A stretch of DNA of 54,946 nucleotides, filler included, from Sphacelaria rigidula (Eukaryota): assembly GCA_964200075.2 (NCBI GenBank). It is 2 parts of 2 records of this genome, joined end to end, with 100 filler letters (N's around TTAATTAATTAA, not from the genome) between each part and the next. Parts side by side here need not be neighbours in the genome. Positions count along the whole stretch, not along the records: positions 1 to 27,442 come from CAXNAA020000117.1; 1 more part is not named here. The stretch is one strand, 5' to 3'. The position numbers and the translations under genes were made by a program. How positions within the stretch are numbered: position 1 is the stretch's first letter; each line of letters starts with the position of its first letter. Of the stretch, positions 2,430 through 14,057 are shown one piece after another. The notes beneath the pieces were generated by a model that was not told where the DNA came from, ran no database searches, and saw only the letters and a list, made by a program, of their open reading frames with translations.

Positions 2430-4490
2430 TCATCCATAGTTCTTGATAAAAATACACCTGCTGCTGTGAATATCTCTGTCACAACTGTGCTTGCACTTTG
2501 GGTAGTTGAAAACCTCCTCCGAGGTCATCTTCCAATTGATAAACCCACACTTGTCACACAGCTTTGTTGTCAACTGTTCGGGTACAATTGCGACTCTTTT
2601 CCCGTGGTCATTCGCCGTGCTGATCAATCTCTGTCTGAACTGATAGTGTTTCAGACTAGCATGCAGAAGCTTCTGGTTCCTGTGCGACTTCGTCTTCATC
2701 ACTCCGTTTGACAGTCTGCCGACCATGATGACGTCAAAGGTTTTAACCAGATATAAGCAGACCTTGTTATGCATCTCATCGACCATGTTGGCGATCCTTT
2801 TGGATACCTTGCGCCACCCCTTGGTCAACTTGGACTTGGTCACTTTCAGTTTCCTGAGTCGCTCCCGTTTTTTTATACACCGTGAGAGTTTGCGTCCTGC
2901 TTCTTCTCCGATAAACCCGATGGCGCCATCGGGAGAATAAAACGATCCGAACTTCCGGGACCCCATATCCAAAGAAACAACCCGATGACCTTCAGCTTTC
3001 GGAGCGACAGCTGTTTGCCTGGTCACGGTCGCGTAATAAACCCCCCTGTCTTTGATGATCTCCGTTACAAGGCCGTCGGCCGGCCTCACTTCTTCTCCGA
3101 GAATGATATCGCCATCAAACTCCGTAAACGATAGCTGGAGACGAGAACCCTGTATACGAGAGTCTTTCTTCTGAAGACCGATCCTCTGTTCTTGAATAAA
3201 CTTGCTCCGGAAATGAAGAGAACCCTTTCCACGCGATTCCACACTTTTTTGTGATGTAGCGAACTGATCAACTGCTTTCTGTCTGACGTGCTCTGGTGTC
3301 CTCAAGGTTTTGTTCATCGTCGCACACATGGAACGTTTCCTGATCGCCTTGTCTCGAATTTCAGAAGTCGAAACACCCTCGATAAGCTTGCGAACACACT
3401 CGTTGTAGACCCTGCGGCTGTCGGACATGTACTTCACGAGAGTTTTTTTCTGTTCTTTCGTCGGATACAGCCGAATCTTCTTAGCACGAGTATAATGAGG
3501 CTCGATATCCGAAATTTTGTCTTGGATGACTTTCGTCAAGGCATCCTGCTCCGTGAGAAGCGCTTCCACACTGTCCTTGCTGGTCGGAGAGGGGTCGTCA
3601 AACTCGCGGATCGCTTGGCGGATCGAAATGTATTCGGCCATTTCAGTTTTCGAGAGGTTTTTGAGGAGCTTTTTTTTGTCGATGGAATTATGTGTGCGTG
3701 TTTTCTTGTCCATGGTTCTCTTCATCGTGTTATCATGTATGCTCTGAATCAGTTTGTCCATCCTTTGGTTTAGAAAGCCTAGCAAGTGGCGAATCAGGTG
3801 ATCCGAGCACGGCGAGATCTTGGCAATCCTTAGCTGAACCAGAACCAACTTGAGTTTCGCCGTGTTGAGAGCTCCCCGCTGTATCGCGTTTCCTTTTGCC
3901 GGTACTTCTTTTTCCATAGAGTCTCGAACTGAAAACGTGGATGACGGCCATGAGGTCCTCCATGAGCTCTGTCTCTGGTGAACCGTTTTCGTTTTGATTG
4001 AGAACCACGAGTTCTGTGTTGTTTTCGTCACAGACAAACTGGATAATTTCGAAAGCAAATCGGCACAGTCTGTCTTTGTAGGCAACCATGACGCGGTCGA
4101 CCTGTCCCTGCATGATGTGTCGAAGAAACTTTTTGAAGCCTTTCTTTTTGAAGTTGAGTCCGGATCCTGTGTCAGATAGTATCGATATCCCCGGGCAAGA
4201 ATCTCTGATGAACTGTTCTTGTCTCCCAAGATCCTCTTTCTGTTTAGCGGACGATACCCTTGCGTATCCGATGTCGGTCCGCGATGCCTTCCTTTTATCA
4301 TTCGCGAGACGTCTTGCACAAATTCGTGACTCCTCTGACCGGAGCGCTTGCGTTTGTTTGAAGGTTTCGATGTCGTAAAGACGTTGACCACCCGGGGTTC
4401 TAATCGTTGGTATGGCTTCAAGCTTATCCCATCGCCTGAGGGTGGCGTTGGAGACTCCAAGACATTCGATGGCAGTTGCGGTGTTGACAT
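2430..4490 (-). CDS. tnpB: Fanzor2 / TnpB RNA-guided nuclease. Likely start MEKEVP at 3917 (495 aa); the frame stays open to ATG 4490 (686 aa)
   Basis: OrfB HTH-like KKIRLYPTKEQ..SRRVYN; RuvC-I VSLDMG; RuvC-II VPEQLTTKLCDKCG; RuvC-III DRDIHSSRCI. The second Zn pair reads YPKC. Confidence 0.95.
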   Translation of the reverse strand: MSTPQLPSNVLESPTPPSGDGISLKPYQRLEPRVVNVFTTSKPSNKRKRSGQRSHEFVQDVSRMIKGRHRGPTSDTQGYRPLNRKRILGDKNSSSEILARGYRYYLTQDPDSTSKRKASKSFFDTSCRDRSTASWLPTKTDCADLLSKLSSLSVTKTTQNSWFSIKTKTVHQRQSSWRTSWPSSTFSVRDSMEKEVPAKGNAIQRGALNTAKLKLVLVQLRIAKISPCSDHLIRHLLGFLNQRMDKLIQSIHDNTMKRTMDKKTRTHNSIDKKKLLKNLSKTEMAEYISIRQAIREFDDPSPTSKDSVEALLTEQDALTKVIQDKISDIEPHYTRAKKIRLYPTKEQKKTLVKYMSDSRRVYNECVRKLIEGVSTSEIRDKAIRKRSMCATMNKTLRTPEHVRQKAVDQFATSQKSVESRGKGSLHFRSKFIQEQRIGLQKKDSRIQGSRLQLSFTEFDGDIILGEEVRPADGLVTEIIKDRGVYYATVTRQTAVAPKAEGHRVVSLDMGSRKFGSFYSPDGAIGFIGEEAGRKLSRCIKKRERLRKLKVTKSKLTKGWRKVSKRIANMVDEMHNKVCLYLVKTFDVIMVGRLSNGVMKTKSHRNQKLLHASLKHYQFRQRLISTANDHGKRVAIVPEQLTTKLCDKCGFINWKMTSEEVFNYPKCKHSCDRDIHSSRCIFIKNYG

Positions 4491-4802: not shown

Positions 4803-5345
4803 ATGAGCAACCTGCACTAATTCGCTTCGACGGGTACCGTGGAAAGTGTGATAGATCTACTTTCGAAGAAATCGACCGACATCGAAGAACGCCGACGCCA
4901 TGATGACAACGGGTGGACTCCTTTCATGGTCGCCGCCGAAAGGGGCTACTTACGCATAGTGAGAGTTCTTCTGCGACACGGGGCTCGTGTGTCCGCGAGT
5001 ACTGAGAATGGACACACCGCCTTGCACATTTCGATACAAAACAAACACCTGGCCGTATCAAAGACATTGATCAGGGCCGGCGCAGACCTTGAAGCCAATG
5101 CAACTTGCTGCACACGGGGCCCAGGAAAGATCGGAGGTTATACTCCTCTCCACCTGGCCGCGGACATAGGGTTCTGCGAAGGAATGATGGCCCTGATCGG
5201 CGCCGGTGCAAACATCGACAGCTACTTGAACAACGGGGCTACACCGCTGTACTTGTCGGCATGCTGCGGAAAGTTAGAAGCGCTCAGGGTTCTCATTCGC
5301 GCGGGAGCTGACCCACTACTTCCAATACGAAGTGCTTCGAGGTGA
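4803..5345 (+). pseudogene. Ankyrin-repeat protein, phaeovirus-like; premature stop and 3' truncation
   Basis: GWTPFMVAA, GHTALH, GYTPLHLAA and GATPLYLSA repeats. In-frame upstream MSNLH*FASTGTVESVIDLL has TAA at 4818-4820. Runs into the gag remnant near 5335. Confidence 0.88.
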
Positions 5346-6907: not shown

Positions 6908-7124
6908 TTTGCGGCATTTACTATGTCGTCAATCGAAAGTAGTGGAACGCTTTGATCCTGCCTTTTTTCAGGACCAACCTATGGGCACCTGGCGGGGCTT
7001 CAGATACGGGCAGTCTGGTTCAAGTTTTTAATTTAATGGAGGCGGGTCGCACGATGACCCACTGTTTCCATTATTGTAAAGTTAAGCAATTGGAAAGTTA
7101 AATGTTTCGAAAGCGTAGACAAAA

Positions 7125-8213
7125 ATGACTTACTCGACTCATCACGAAATTTACGATGCCTTTAAAAAACGCGACAAACAGTGGATGCAACGACGCCGTA
7201 AATTAGATACATCTTCCCTTTTCTATACTCTCACAAAGTGCTGTATTCAAGAGAGAGGTGTTCATCACATTTTGCGGATGGGTGATGAACAGTACTCTTC
7301 GCAGGCGCTTCACTCGACCAGGAAGAAACTTCCTCCGGGCGCTTTCAAAGAAGTAAATCGGTTCTTACATCGAGGACCACATGAACCACGAACTTTTGCC
7401 GTTGACGGCTCAAGAGTCCACGTCCACCCTTCCTTTATCAACGCTGGATACAAGACTAGGACGAAAGACAAGCCCGTACCGCGTCCTGCTAAACGACCGC
7501 TCGTCATGCTCTCTTCGATGGTAGATGTGAAAACCAAAGCGTGTGTAGACTTTGAGCTCACGAAGCACTTCAACGAGAGGAAGGCAGCCGTATCGATGCT
7601 CCGGAGTGTGCGAAAAGATGACACATTGCTGTTCGACCGAGGCTATTATTCCAAAAGCTTGCTACAGAGAGTTCACGACTCGCATGCGTTTGGGGTTTGG
7701 AGACTCAAGATTAATGCGTTCAAGGGAACCAGATCGTTTTTCAACTCGTGGAGAACAGAAGCGATGTGTCTCATTTCTGGGGTCAAGGCACGCTTTCTCA
7801 AATATTTCATCAACGGAAGGACCTACGTCTGTCTAACGAACAACCCGTCTTTGTCCCGGAGAGACGTCAAGGACATGTACGCCTCGAGGTGGAGGGTGGA
7901 GGAGAGCTTCAAGCGACTAAAATCCAACCTCAAGCTCGAAAAAGCCCACGCTAGAACTCTTGCTCTGTACATCCAGGAAATAGAGGCGCGGGTGTTACTC
8001 GACACTATCACACTGAGGTTACAGAGGAAAATAAATGAGCCATCCTACATTTATACACTTGACACGTATGTGACACACATTCTTCGGAACGTGAAAACGG
8101 TTTCAGGCCAAACGCAATTGGTCAATCAAAATCACTTGCATTCTAATGTAAACAGGAAACCGTGGGCAAGAAAAGCACGTCCCCTGTCCTCACAACTTCG
8201 AGGTCCACGGTAA
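7125..8213 (+). CDS. IS4-family DDE transposase
   Basis: FAVDGS (D), LLFDRGYYS (D) and YASRWRVEESFKRLK (the IS4 YREK signature). ORF intact. Confidence 0.96.
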   Translation: MTYSTHHEIYDAFKKRDKQWMQRRRKLDTSSLFYTLTKCCIQERGVHHILRMGDEQYSSQALHSTRKKLPPGAFKEVNRFLHRGPHEPRTFAVDGSRVHVHPSFINAGYKTRTKDKPVPRPAKRPLVMLSSMVDVKTKACVDFELTKHFNERKAAVSMLRSVRKDDTLLFDRGYYSKSLLQRVHDSHAFGVWRLKINAFKGTRSFFNSWRTEAMCLISGVKARFLKYFINGRTYVCLTNNPSLSRRDVKDMYASRWRVEESFKRLKSNLKLEKAHARTLALYIQEIEARVLLDTITLRLQRKINEPSYIYTLDTYVTHILRNVKTVSGQTQLVNQNHLHSNVNRKPWARKARPLSSQLRGPR

Positions 8214-8219
8214 AACAAT

Positions 8220-10916
8220 ATGGCATCAACAAAACACGCAAAGGACGACGACTCGAATCGCAAACGAAAACGGACGACCACCAAATCAACGGACAAAGCC
8301 ACTGAGGATGACGAAGAGGAATCTTCCAACATCCACATCAAACAAGAGCTCGACAAATGGGCCGACATAAGAGGGATCAAGAACAGAGGGACGCGAATCC
8401 GGTCCGTCACGTCTTCCATGGACGCTTGTGTTCGGGAAGATGTTCCGGGCAAGGGTGCCCTTCTCCATCAAATCGACAAGGCCGCCAGGTCTCTCGGTAT
8501 CCTTCGCCACCTCGTCTCTGTTTGCTTGAACGTACTCGCTGAAAAGGATCCCTCTAATCCACTCATTTTCAATAGGACATTCATACAGCAGCTTTTCACT
8601 CGCATGTCGGGAAATGAGCTGAACAGCCGTGCTACGAAACTGGAGCACCCCGACCTCAACAAGTATCTCGAGGAACACGAGATGGACGAAGACACGATCC
8701 GCGAGGTTGAAAAGTTCCCTCTTCGATGCCGAGACGCTATGTGTGGTGAGATGTTGAGCTCCATCAAGAAACACGTGTCCGGTAACTTCAGGGTTAGAGC
8801 TACCGAGCACATCGCATGCGAGCTGGAGAGAAGACTGTGGTCGTTCCGTGATGATCAACACTTCTGGACAAACCTCTCGGGGGCGGCCAATCGACTGTAC
8901 GAGAGTGCGGGACAGAAGACTCTGGAAAAAGCTTTGTCCATGATACACGCATTCACGGATAAGGAGAGAGGGAAAAGCAATGAACAACTTCGCCCCGACT
9001 GGAGACAGGTTTTGGAAGAACTTCTGCCGGAGTACAGGGCTCTCTTCGAAACCCTACGTTCGACAAGAACTCGTCCGAAACATCCTCCGAAGCATCCAAG
9101 GACGGAGGAGCAGATGACCGGGACGGAAGACTTTTTTTACAACATCAAGGCCAAGATGAACGACGTGTTGAAAATCGAAGCAATGTTCCGGGAGTCCGAC
9201 TTCAACCTGCGACAGAGAAGAGGCGAAATTTGGTCCGAGATCTCTGAGAGACAGTCGTCCATCAAGCCGTCCACGACCAAAGAGGGGTTTGTGAACCAGC
9301 AGCATCTTCTTCTGGCCGTACCAAGACCCTCTTGGTTCGACGACGGCACAAAGATGAGCAAGAAAGACGCGACAAATCTCCCGAGAGACGTTTCTAACGC
9401 CCGGAAAGAGATCTGGAAGGTCACGAGAGAACCGGGGACGGAAAACCCCCCCAAATCTTTCTCTCTTCTACCACACTTCTCTCTGACAAGAGCATTCGTC
9501 AAGTACGACGACTGCAGCATCGGTACGCTTGCAAAGTTCCTTCTCATCACAGGGAAAGGTCCCAACTTGAAGACGGAGGGGGTGGCCAATGCCGGATGAT
9601 CCAAGAGACTCTGGTGGTCAGGAATGTTCGATTTTCACACGGAGAGAGTCTCCAAGAGACGCCCGAAAACCCGGAAACGTCCCACGAGTGGAAGGCGCAA
9701 AGTTCTTCGCGCCAAGAACCGCTTCCGGAAAGGAATCAGTGTGTGCACGAAAGATCCTTGGTTTACCGACGATCTTCTGTACGTGGCCAAGAGAGACGAC
9801 CCCGCCTGCAGAACACCATGGCTCGTCAATTCCATTTCAACAGACGGTCTTCAGGTCAAAGTATGTCTAGCTACTGTTGCCAAGACCGATCCTCTGCCCC
9901 GGGGAATCAAAGAACTTGTGAAGAAGGGATATTCTAGTCTGCCCGACGTCGGTCTCAACTTCTCCAGGTTTTCAAAGGGTGCCTTCAACAAAGCCAGGAA
10001 ACTGAGCGGCAAGGAGAAGTCTGCGCTGTCTACCGAAAACAGCATCGAGGTCGTCGGTCTTGACCCTGGACAAGTGTCTATCTACGCGACAGTGAGGGCA
10101 AACGTAACATCCGCAGACGTAACATCTTCGGAGGGGTTCACCTCTTCTTCTTCCAGGGGTTCGAAAGCTTCGTTTTCCTCCCGGGAGTACCGCCACCAGT
10201 CTCTCTCTAGATTCGGTGCAAAGGCGGAGACTACACGGAGGCATCAGAATGTTGAATACGGACAAGACATTCAAGCCTTTGACCCCGTGTCGTTGAAACA
10301 ACCGGGTTATTCGTCGGCATATGCTGATGTAACCTATTCGACGCTCAGTGTGAGGATAGACGAACTTCTGTCAGAGGAGCGTAGACTAAAGAGGTTTGCG
10401 AGGCTTCGAGCGAGACAACGTGCCGTTGATGGAATGGCAAGGAATATCGCTTACGGTAATTCGTACAAAAACGAGGTCAGGAGGGCAGGGCGATCTTCCA
10501 ACGAGACAATGTCTCTCGAGGGAAGGAGAGAGTTGCTTCGGAATATCAGAGACAAGAGAAGAGTCGTTCTATTTGGGAATGGTCAGTTTGGTCATGGTGC
10601 GAGGGGACCGTGTCCAAGAAAGGCATTGATTAGAGCTTTGGGCGTACTCTGTCCGGTCTTGATTGTCGACGAGTTTCGCACGTCCAAGTGCTGCTGTGGT
10701 TGTGGCACACCACTCAAGCAAGTGGGTGGTTCTCGGGTGTTTCGCTGTGAACGCCAAACGGACGAGGGCCGAGCTTGCCCCGTGGGAAAGATCGATAGGG
10801 ATACGAATGGTTCGGTGAACATAGGAGCTTCTAGGGTTAGAGAGACCGTCGTATCTTTGTCGTTCGTCCAGCGGGGACTAGTGTGTTTAGACACACTTTC
10901 CGAATTTTCTACCTAG
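8220..10916 (+). pseudogene. Fanzor1 nuclease, 898 codons, with a single in-frame TGA at 9597-9599
   Basis: ORFs 8220..9599 and 9624..10916 are the same frame (ANAG*SKRLWWSGMFDF). Motifs ISTDG, VVGLDPG (D), VDEFRTSKCCCGC (E plus Zn) and IDRDTNGSVNI (D). Confidence 0.92.
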
Positions 10917-10960
10917 TCTTCTTTAAGTTGACGGTAATGACTGTTTCTGCTCAGAACAAA
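10831..10960 (+). ncRNA. Putative Fanzor1 omegaRNA overlapping the ORF 3' end and right TIR, with guide from the flank
   Basis: Stem CTAGG..TAGAGAG (10831-10844) with TTTTCTA.CCTAG (10905-10916). Hairpin AGTGTGT-TTAG-ACACACT at 10880-10897. ACCGTC (10845-10850) is complementary to GACGGT (10930-10935). Confidence 0.65.
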
Positions 10961-11422
10961 CTTTCGAGGGGAACGGCACACAGGGCAGGCTCCCGACTCT
11001 AACCACGATCACATTGAAGACAACAAATCGCCTGGCACACGTTGCAATTCGTGTGGTGGTCACGCGTCGTCTTCGCCCGGCACACACAACACGACCGATT
11101 CGAGTCTGATTAGAAAATTCGAAGCCATGTATGTGTGGTAGTCGCGCTCGCCTTCGAAGTTTATTGAAATGGTTGCATTTTTTCAGAACAGCAAACAATC
11201 AATGTCTCCTGGACATGTTATGATTTCTTCTCCTGACGCCTTGCTCCGCAAGCTATCGGAGGCACGCATCAGGCCTGCGATATCTGCTTTGCGACGGAAC
11301 AATGATGCTTTTTTGATGTTCATCTGGTGATCCATACTCAGGACGGCCAGACGCTCGTCCATATAGGCTTGTAGATATTCGGGTATGATTGCCTCTGTCA
11401 TTATGATGTCAGCGTCGTCCAA
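10948..11422 (-). pseudogene. RING-finger-like protein remnant, 3' end interrupted by the IS4 element
   Basis: Minus strand CCVC..HHTNCNVCQAICCLQCDR, then a frameshift, then ACPVCRSP (about 11092-10965). Several stops and shifts upstream. Confidence 0.6.
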
Positions 11423-13199: not shown

Positions 13200-14057
13200 A
13201 TGCCGCTCCTCATCCTTGTCGCAAAATAAAAATACATGCGAGACGGTGACGCCGACCTGTTCCAAGGGTGACGGCCCGTTCACGTGTCTCAGTTGTGCCA
13301 AGCCGCTGGTCCTGAGGCAGGGTGAGAAGAAGCGGTGGCATTTCGCGCACCATTCCAAGGATATTAATGACGGGCGTTCTGCCGGTGGGGAGATCTACAT
13401 CCACTTGGCGGCCAAGTTGTTGTTGATTAGGTATATCTCTAGGTTCAAGTTCGCCGCAGAGTGCGGTCGCCTGCGTCACGATCACGAAAAGCAATACCAA
13501 GGATGCACGGCGGTGCAGGAGCATCGTTACGACGGCGTACACTCCGCGGACGTGGCGTGTTGCGTGACGGGAAGTTGGAGGCTATCGTTGGGGTCATGGC
13601 GACGCACAAGATTGAGGGAGAATCCTTGGCGTCCAGATTGGGGTGTGTGGGGGGAGACAATGTGTGGGAGGTGGAAGCAATGGGCGTTTTGAGACAGCAA
13701 AAGGGTCTGTCATTGACGACCGACACCATTCATGTTCCTAGTTTGCTCAAGTTAGAGGACTGTGCCGAATGTGCGCAGGAGAGTTGGGAGGCGCACGAAC
13801 GACGGGAAAAACAGATGGCGGTTGAAAAGCTAGAGTCCGAGGAACGCCGTCGGCGGTTCGAGGAGTCTAGGCGAAAGTCCGATCAAAAGAAGCAGGAAGA
13901 CGAGGAAAAAAGGCAACAGGCCGACACCACCGTGGTCATCATCGACGACAACACCCTCCGGCGCAAGGGCGTGCTGATGAAAAAGTTCTTTCTCAAGCCT
14001 GGCGACAGCATTGATCGTAGCTACGGGTGGATGAAGGCCCCTGAAGCATCCCCCTGA
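13200..14057 (+). pseudogene. CoiA-like Zn-ribbon + PD-(D/E)XK nuclease, frameshifted
   Basis: FTCLSCAKPLVLRQGEKKRWHFAH, GGEIYIHLAAK, QEHRYDGVHSADVA, then a shift to AIVGVMATH..NVWEV. Shifts near 13225 and 13558. Confidence 0.78.

Follow-up and report, generated by a model that had tools for sequence, protein, structure and literature searches.

The window analyzed here is a stretch of 54,946 nucleotides from Sphacelaria rigidula (GenBank assembly GCA_964200075.2), and it carries an IS4-type transposon of 3,871 bp (7069-10939) with a gene for a DDE transposase and a broken Fanzor1 gene inside. We propose, with modest confidence, that the 130 bases at 10831-10960 take in the 3' end of a phaeovirus-borne transposon of the ESvi-1B kind, organized as an ordinary Fanzor1 guide-RNA scaffold without a pseudoknot. 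The 60 non-coding bases at 10880-10939 would encode this scaffold of the Fanzor1 guide (omega) RNA, which would be transcribed and bound by Fanzor. Its parts would be a first stem-loop (SL1) overlapping the stop codon, a single-stranded conserved block CGAAUUUUCUACCUA and a second stem-loop (SL2) with the right terminal inverted repeat (TIR) as its 3' arm. The guide would begin at 10940, its sequence taken from the duplicated target and the flank, and would match the empty site, preceded there by CC(C) as the candidate target-adjacent motif (TAM). Together with its relatives, the locus thus provides a concrete predicted scaffold of ~60 bases (SL1, invariant block and TIR-containing stem), a candidate TAM (CC) and a clear negative for the pseudoknot that an earlier, sequence-only reading of this right end had put forward. 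Features lie on the + strand unless indicated otherwise.

Conservation of the Right End

Five right-end copies were compared: those of the window, of L048 (a 1,201-bp marine metagenome contig with the same right end in a different flank), of the Ectocarpus elements ESvi-1A and ESvi-1B, and the left-end copy of ESvi-1A. The latter is an inverted copy of a right end and gives this element a 59-bp TIR at both ends.

SL1 (10880-10897) was found by folding as a perfect 7-bp hairpin with a 4-nt loop (AGTGTGT at 10880-10886, TTAG, ACACACT at 10891-10897) and starts one base into the true stop codon. It is present in 5/5 copies, i.e., also in L048 and the three Ectocarpus right-end copies; in the latter the outer pairs were identified by eye. 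Five inner pairs and the loop are the same throughout (TGTGT-TTAG-ACACA), apart from a loop TCAG in one copy, and the outer pairs change from lineage to lineage with pairing retained. They are G-C and A-U in the window; ESvi-1B has an extra G and the pairs G-U, G-U, A-U and U-A; the left-end copy of ESvi-1A has one A-G mismatch, then C-G, A-U, U-A and U-A. G-C is replaced by G-U and A-U by G-U or C-G, and new A-U/U-A pairs lengthen the stem. In the comparison with Ectocarpus, the gap between ACACA and CGAA is constant at five bases, its letters varying. SL1 of the GtFz1, SpuFz1 and PpFz1 RNAs also consists of seven base pairs and binds the RuvC/TNB surface; beyond SL1 the Fanzor1 scaffold is variable, and the smallest RNA measures 75 nt (Xu 2024, PMC11423790). 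The hairpin at 10880-10897 has the seven pairs of such a first stem-loop and, by analogy, is likely the SL1 of a guide-RNA scaffold.

Behind SL1, the block CGAATTTTCTACCTA (10901-10915), comprising the linker and the 5' base of SL2, is identical in all five copies. Its counterpart in the related element ESv-2 is CCGGATTTTC, and in more distant relatives (A)TTTTCT. Among distant Fanzor1 3' ends (L049, L050, L051, L054, L062), several lineages show a (CG)AA..TTTTCT motif after a hairpin at or near the stop codon, in transposon ends that are otherwise unrelated.

The guide-proximal SL2 (10910-10936) appears in both the minimum free energy and the centroid structure of 10880-10939. It is predicted to pair UACC (10910-13) with GGUA (10933-36), GUC (10916-18) with GAC (10930-32) and CU (10921-22) with AG (10926-27), the right TIR providing the 3' arm. 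All four TIR bases that differ between the two ends of the element (10927, 10930, 10933 and 10934) are G paired with C in this predicted stem. In the Ectocarpus copies the inner stem is, as read by eye, a stronger hairpin of 6-7 bp, CAACUU-CUU-AAGUUG. The segment 10880-10939 is the only one examined that folds better than its shuffles (z -2.07; 6/200 shuffles equal), and it does so with the two hairpins SL1 and SL2. No Rfam family matched 10500-11100 up to E = 1.

The non-coding stretch from the stop codon to the right repeat is better conserved than the open reading frame (ORF), both against L048 and in the invariant blocks shared with Ectocarpus. Between the window and L048, 118 of the 682 aligned coding bases differ (17.3%), compared to 2/114 at 10826-10939 (Fisher p 7.7e-7) and 0/61 from the stop codon to the element end (Fisher p 2.8e-5).

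Weighing the Scaffold Reading

Several observations weigh against such a scaffold. SL2 represents a conserved pairing potential rather than proven covariation, judged from the copies at hand: UACC at its base is invariant in 5/5 copies and GGUA in 4/5, and they never co-vary. In the lineage of the window it is weak, with nine pairs and two interruptions, and its inner stem lies in another register than in Ectocarpus. By our own arithmetic, the chance that the four asymmetric bases all fall among the nine paired TIR positions is ~0.05. The ESv-2 family has no comparable hairpin, its right ends folding like shuffles (z +0.23 to +1.45). Across eight Fanzor lineages the enrichment of a hairpin near the stop codon is modest (Stouffer z -2.19; P 0.62 and 0.88 in two of them), and with statistics of this size the guide RNAs of the clade may share the stop-proximal hairpin and (CG)AA..TTTTCT as a feature. 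A recently recombined module, instead of selection, could explain why the window and L048 are nearly identical in their last 114 bases; against ESvi-1B, ~15/51 bases differ in the coding tail and ~10/61 in the non-coding end, as counted by eye. The ESvi-1A and ESvi-1B DNA, taken from the supplement of PMC3627910, was compared by eye throughout, with no alignment tool. Finally, the Fanzor of the window copy is broken, and therefore an RNA from here would need protein from another copy.

The same bases could also serve the transposase alone. The 60 bases would then be a long structured transposase-binding end, consisting of terminal repeat and subterminal palindrome, with a hairpin that is a DNA feature or incidental and with no guide RNA; we regard this as unlikely, albeit worth serious consideration. 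In ESvi-1A the whole 59-base block, including the hairpin, is a TIR at both ends, which has the look of a DNA-level end. The Ectocarpus right ends contain the palindrome CAACTT-CTT-AAGTTG on the TIR core, left ends carry a direct subterminal repeat of this core, and none of the 23 sequencing runs containing the stretch is recorded as RNA. A double-stranded binding site, however, needs no joint change of the outer SL1 pairs, nor does it account for a 7-bp hairpin located right at the stop codon like SL1 of the solved Fanzor1 RNAs. The asymmetric CC-A motif in the flanks (see below) is unexpected for a two-fold symmetric transpososome, and the block is absent from the left end of autonomous elements, which means that transposition does not need it at both ends. 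ESvi-1A itself is without a transposase, its left end carrying the inverted hairpin, invariant block and TIR; judging from this arrangement, guide RNAs could read out of both its ends, on the left from the inverted right-end block.

It is improbable that the hairpin acts as a signal for the mRNA 3' end or for termination in the Fanzor gene, with nothing but a TIR behind it. Its start one base into the stop codon and the stop-proximal hairpins of several related lineages would fit, but no T-run follows, a terminator scan did not call it, the left-end copy of ESvi-1A keeps the hairpin with no upstream ORF, and the invariant 15-base block behind it is left unexplained.

The Proposed Pseudoknot and Outer Stem

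The sequence-only reading had the guide RNA start within the ORF, with an outer stem enclosing the hairpin and a pseudoknot between ACCGUC and GACGGU that forces the right TIR to differ from the left one. The hairpin, stem, hexamers and TIR mismatches on which it was built are all found by direct reading. The outer stem joins 10831-10844 to 10905-10916 by 5 + 6 pairs with a 2-base bulge (RNAduplex -9.6 kcal/mol), ACCGTC (10845-10850) is exactly complementary to GACGGT (10930-10935), and the TIRs match at 13 of 17 positions, with three of the four mismatches (10934, 10933 and 10930, but not 10927) inside the hexamer at 10930-10935. Within the single sequence, none of these features is clearly above chance. 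When 161-nt regions are shuffled, 5.5% contain a perfect 7-bp hairpin. The upstream 123 bases (10800-10922) were shuffled 5000 times with dinucleotides preserved: an exact complement to GACGGT itself occurs in 4.6% of these shuffles and one to any TIR hexamer in 24%. In a set of 2000 shuffles, 40% yield an upstream/linker duplex that equals or exceeds the observed one in stability. Relative to shuffles, the folds of 10800-10960 (z -0.71) and 10826-10939 (z +0.54) are ordinary, and in 10826-10939 the fold with the outer stem reaches a frequency of 0.005 in the ensemble. The verdict therefore rests on the related copies.

These copies do not retain the pairing. In ESvi-1B and at the right end of ESvi-1A the upstream hexamer is ACCATC and the TIR hexamer is still GACGGT, so that the fourth of the six pairs becomes an uncompensated A-C mismatch and 3 + 2 pairs are left. 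The change, CCG to CCA, is a synonymous third-position change of a proline codon in a conserved Arg-Pro-Ser tail. The outer stem loses 2 of its 11 pairs in ESvi-1B (10840 with 10909, and C10831 with 10916, a C in that element), two more becoming G-U, and 3 of 11 in ESvi-1A; no compensated change occurs in either Ectocarpus copy. Changes in its 5' arm are ordinary codon changes, and the 3' arm, invariant for other reasons, varies only at 10916, where a pair is broken. L048 is the same as the window at the pairing sites and hence uninformative there. A diverged right-end copy (runs X4 and X5) lacks 14 letters in the stretch from 10833 to 10868, including three at 10846, and the ESv-2 right ends contain, by eye, no complement to their own TIR hexamer. 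The proposed 5' stem arm (10831-10844) and hexamer (10831-10850 in total) read as the codons CTA GGG TTA GAG AGA CCG TCG of the Fanzor tail (Leu-Gly-Leu-Glu-Arg-Pro-Ser) and show no sign of a role in RNA pairing.

Comparison with solved RNAs gives points on both sides. The GtFz1 RNA overlaps 17 ORF codons (Saito 2023, PMC10432273), and a pseudoknot beside the guide occurs in TnpB and Fanzor2 RNAs (Yoon 2023, 10.1101/2023.08.09.552727), that of ISDra2 TnpB and Fanzor2, in which guide-adjacent bases pair with an upstream segment, being the model for the idea. However, in ISDra2 TnpB the partner is an apical loop and not a strand beside a stem (Yoon 2023, 10.1101/2023.08.09.552727), and the guide RNA of SpuFz1, as described with its structure, is solved without a TnpB-type pseudoknot (Saito 2023, PMC10432273). 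The pairings are present in the window and L048, 8-9 of the 11 outer-stem pairs survive in the Ectocarpus copies, and 10826-10878 is unusually conserved between the window and L048 (2/53 differ). Given the uncompensated break in ESvi-1A and ESvi-1B and the chance-level occurrence in shuffles, a pseudoknot of the TnpB/Fanzor2 type is not found here, and we consider the model very improbable. The sequences compared indicate that there is no long-range pseudoknot and that the upstream hexamer and 5' stem arm are simply codons. Lack of conserved pairing is the very outcome that the sequence-only reading had named as speaking against its hexamer pseudoknot, and the enclosing stem, equaled in shuffles and losing pairs uncompensated, likewise falls away as an RNA element.

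Asymmetry of the Terminal Inverted Repeats

The right TIR (TTAAGTTGACGGTAATG, reverse complement CATTACCGTCAACTTAA; 10923-10939) is identical in the window, L048, ESvi-1B and the right end of ESvi-1A, with one change in the left-end copy of ESvi-1A. The left TIR of the window (CATTATTGTAAAGTTAA; 7069-7085) is identical to that of ESv-2 at 15/17 positions and to that of ESvi-1B at only 12/17. In ESvi-1B the core CGTCAACTTAAG of the right type is also found in the left TIR, and only 3/18 positions (3, 5 and 6) separate the two TIRs of this element. At three of the four positions that are asymmetric in the window, its TIRs are nearly symmetric, and ESvi-1A has right-type ends on both sides. TIR asymmetry is not a family-wide property.

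ESvi and ESv elements have a common transposase part and different remainders (Bao and Jurka 2013, PMC3627910). The simplest reading of the window copy would be a mosaic, in which the transposase module brings along its ESv-2-like left end and the Fanzor module of ESvi-1 its right end. With a transposase 81% identical to that of ESv-2 and a Fanzor of ESvi-1 type, the difference between left and right TIR would be largely a matter of history. It is plausible that SL2 places a further constraint, at the RNA level, on the right TIR, whose bases are conserved but do not covary. The earlier suggestion that the right TIR serves both as transposase site and as RNA scaffold accordingly keeps part of its ground: the TIR lies in the expected place and other Fanzor1 systems offer a published precedent, but the route via a pseudoknot is lost.

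Flanking Motif and Candidate TAM

The element is flanked by an exact duplication of the target site (TSD, 8 bp), ACTGTTTC, whose copies at 7061-7068 (to which no strand applies) and 10940-10947 stand on either side. A CCCA motif is found outside the left end (7058-7061), with CC at -10/-9 and A as the first duplicated base, and represents a candidate TAM or target motif. CCCA occurs at -11..-8 in 5/5 left flanks read directly (window, L001, L002, L003 and L067) and GCCA in two loose-end consensus sequences of other copies (X4 and X10), so that CC-A at -10..-8 is common to 7/7 left flanks overall. The first right-flank base is A in 6/6 flanks read directly, as is implied in four more records that match through 10940/10941, and no mirror motif after the duplication was found in the right flanks read. 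By our own arithmetic, six further independent flanks would all show CCA at one offset with a chance of ~1e-11, before correction for the offsets searched. Among the copies compared, the duplication is intact in the window copy only, and an 8-bp duplication that always starts with A is indistinguishable here from a 7-bp one with a terminal A.

By analogy with Fanzor1 RNAs, which span the right repeat and take a guide of 14-15 nt from the flank (Saito 2023, PMC10432273), the predicted guide (10940-10959) would comprise the right duplication copy (10940-10947) and flank. CC would lie directly 5' of the guide-matched sequence in the empty site, which is where a TAM belongs, and directly 5' of the future duplication, which would form the first eight guide bases. 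We tentatively suggest, as a possibility less secure than the scaffold, that the orientation-specific CC-A is the Fanzor TAM and that RNA-guided cutting of empty, TAM-bearing alleles keeps or spreads the element among co-replicating giant-virus genomes. Insertions beside CC would be those that persist, and the right TIR would be under double selection by transposase and SL2, leaving the left TIR free to drift or be swapped. If this holds true, the family would be a compact example in which an RNA-guided nuclease and a DDE transposase that generates duplications cooperate.

Further observations concern the flanks of other copies. L001 and L002 (copies in EsV-1) and L067 lack a TSD, yet each flank keeps the CC-A/A rule; the missing duplications would fit flank exchange by recombination between copies. 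The flanks of L001 and L002 are not those expected from a simple reciprocal exchange. An orthologous site was considered for the resemblance between the left flanks of the window and L001, but rejected, there being no wider flank homology. In run X10, a contig of record 6 ('organism B') matches the right flank of the window from exactly 10940 (10940-11300) and has ~160 letters joined to 10940 that resemble neither the element nor the left flank. Another occupant of this site, or a rearrangement, may account for this. Among the contigs listed for four runs, no joint across the element, and hence no empty site, was seen.

Relation to Known Systems

Fanzor1 in IS4-type transposons of brown-algal giant viruses has been known since 2013 (PMC3627910), and endogenous giant viruses of Ectocarpus have been reported to carry an IS4 transposon with 8-nt duplication and Fanzor gene at seven polymorphic sites (Nat Microbiol 2026, PMC13236599). 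Similar to ESvi-1B/ESvi-1A and ESv-2, the window element combines an IS4 DDE transposase, followed by Fanzor1, with TIRs of ~18 bp and an 8-bp TSD (PMC3627910). Like them, it is carried by phaeovirus-like DNA. It shares with ESvi-1A/B the identical right TIR and a Fanzor 70% identical to the ESvi-1 protein, and with ESv-2 a transposase 81% identical. In contrast to both, it joins an ESv-2-like left end to an ESvi-1-like right part and has a twice-broken Fanzor; SL2 also has an inner arm unlike that of the Ectocarpus copies. By sequence it belongs to the ESvi-1B/ESv-2 family, which occurs in Ectocarpus and its phaeovirus.

Like the omega RNAs of SpuFz1, GtFz1 and PpFz1, the RNA predicted here would have a flank-derived guide and a 7-bp SL1 (PMC10432273, PMC11423790) and, like the small ones among them, one further stem-loop before the guide (PMC11423790). 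The predicted RNA has no sequence similarity to these RNAs. Spu-1 elements have a conserved CA outside the left repeat that is part of the TAM (Saito 2023, PMC10432273), and here too a conserved motif lies outside the left repeat. Unlike in SpuFz1, GtFz1 and PpFz1, the candidate TAM is an 8-bp duplication away from the element, and the duplication would start the guide.

The Fanzor1 of the insect virus SfAV has TIR and TSD in a conserved guide-proximal stem-loop (Yoon 2023, 10.1101/2023.08.09.552727). The resemblance to this RNA (reRNA) lies in the TIRs, the TSD and a TIR within the stem-loop that flanks the guide, the latter being predicted here; yet in SfAV a fixed TTAN TSD is part of the scaffold, whereas the TSD is variable here except for its first base, and the scaffold measures ~120 nt compared to the ~60 nt predicted in our case. 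The kind of element is therefore already known, and the principle of a TIR within an RNA scaffold is already published (Saito 2023, PMC10432273; Yoon 2023, 10.1101/2023.08.09.552727). The accessible parts of the literature searched hold no description of a guide RNA or target motif for the IS4-Fanzor1 family of brown-algal viruses.

Borders and Related Copies

A DDE_Tnp_1 transposase, TIRs and a TSD, the three hallmarks of the IS4 family, are all present, and an 8-bp TSD is published for this element family (PMC3627910, PMC13236599). The borders are backed by other copies, which start or end at 7069 and 10939/40 in differing flanks, with divergence after 10940; matches of other copies in runs X4 and X10 begin at 7069, the left edge. 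Only a single copy was found in the window when a second was sought.

With the transposase as query, four loci were recovered, all on a viral contig of 335,593 bp that matches EsV-1. Two are full elements, whose Fanzor is only ~25% identical to that of the window and which correspond to ESv-2 = ISvEsV1_1 (Bao and Jurka 2013, PMC3627910). The metagenome search returned one copy of the window family (L048), two ESv-2-type right ends (L067 and L069) and many distant relatives with other ends. In the viral collection, a single-protein search with the Fanzor found no relatives, an alignment-based search found distant Fanzors and EsV-1 only, and among 56 hits of a pattern scan only the two EsV-1 copies were relevant; a scan for the invariant block plus TIR gave no hits in the viral collection or in prokaryote genomes. 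Adjoining its ESv-2-type element, L069 carries a fragment of a window-type Fanzor C-terminus (3526-3621, - strand; 81% DNA identity to 10700-10795), preceded by tandem units of ~60 bases (3630-3854).

Transposase and Fanzor1 Genes

The IS4-family DDE transposase (7125-8213; 362 amino acids) matches Pfam DDE_Tnp_1 (E 2.5e-19) and is 81% identical to the transposase of the EsV-1 element ESv-2. The Fanzor1 gene (8220-10881) has the motifs and homology of the family and lacks an intact frame, being broken by an in-frame TGA and by a 17-base gap. It reads as two pieces in the same frame (8220-9599 and 9624-10916), split by the TGA at 9597-9599. The 17 bases, present in L048, are absent after 10825, which frameshifts the last 18 codons; in the +1 frame the tail continues (ELLGLERPSYLCRSSSGD) to a TAG stop at 10879-10881. 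Contigs of two runs (X4 and X5) show the identical gap, which is therefore no assembly error.

The protein is 70% identical to Ectocarpus siliculosus D8LP59, whose C-terminal tail is the one that ESvi-1B encodes (12 proteins with E <= 0.001 among 7,999 scored candidates). In an alignment of nine sequences, D147, E350, T353, S354, C357, C360, C375, C385, R392 and D393 are invariant. The C-terminal piece retains the catalytic RuvC D/E/D residues (D147, E350 and D393), the TS motif, the four zinc-finger cysteines and the RD motif, in line with the Fanzor1 pattern of D ... [TS][TS]-x-x-C4 zinc finger ... RD with RuvC D/E/D (Bao and Jurka 2013, PMC3627910). Pfam Cas12f1-like_TNB scores 24.7 bits, slightly below its cut-off of 26.3. 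A conserved tail G..QLLG..RP..L.R follows the NIG of the RuvC-III motif in 7/8 relatives.

Viral Setting of the Window

ORFs in the left flank resemble EsV-1 proteins, and the region 4911-5321 shows a translated similarity of ~52%, over pieces of 60-63 amino acids, to EsV-1 DNA (L003, 21-410), a similarity which suggests that the DNA of the window is phaeovirus-derived. Ten of 11 other large ORFs of the window lack any Pfam family. A second TnpB/Fanzor-like ORF of 686 amino acids lies at 2430-4490 on the - strand; it matches Cas12f1-like_TNB (7.3e-12), HTH_OrfB_IS605 and OrfB_IS605 and is 23% identical to the giant-virus contig L010. Downstream of the element, ~13208-13300 shows 79% DNA identity to an IS4 transposase fragment of another EsV-1 locus (L004) and is probably a remnant of another IS4-type element.

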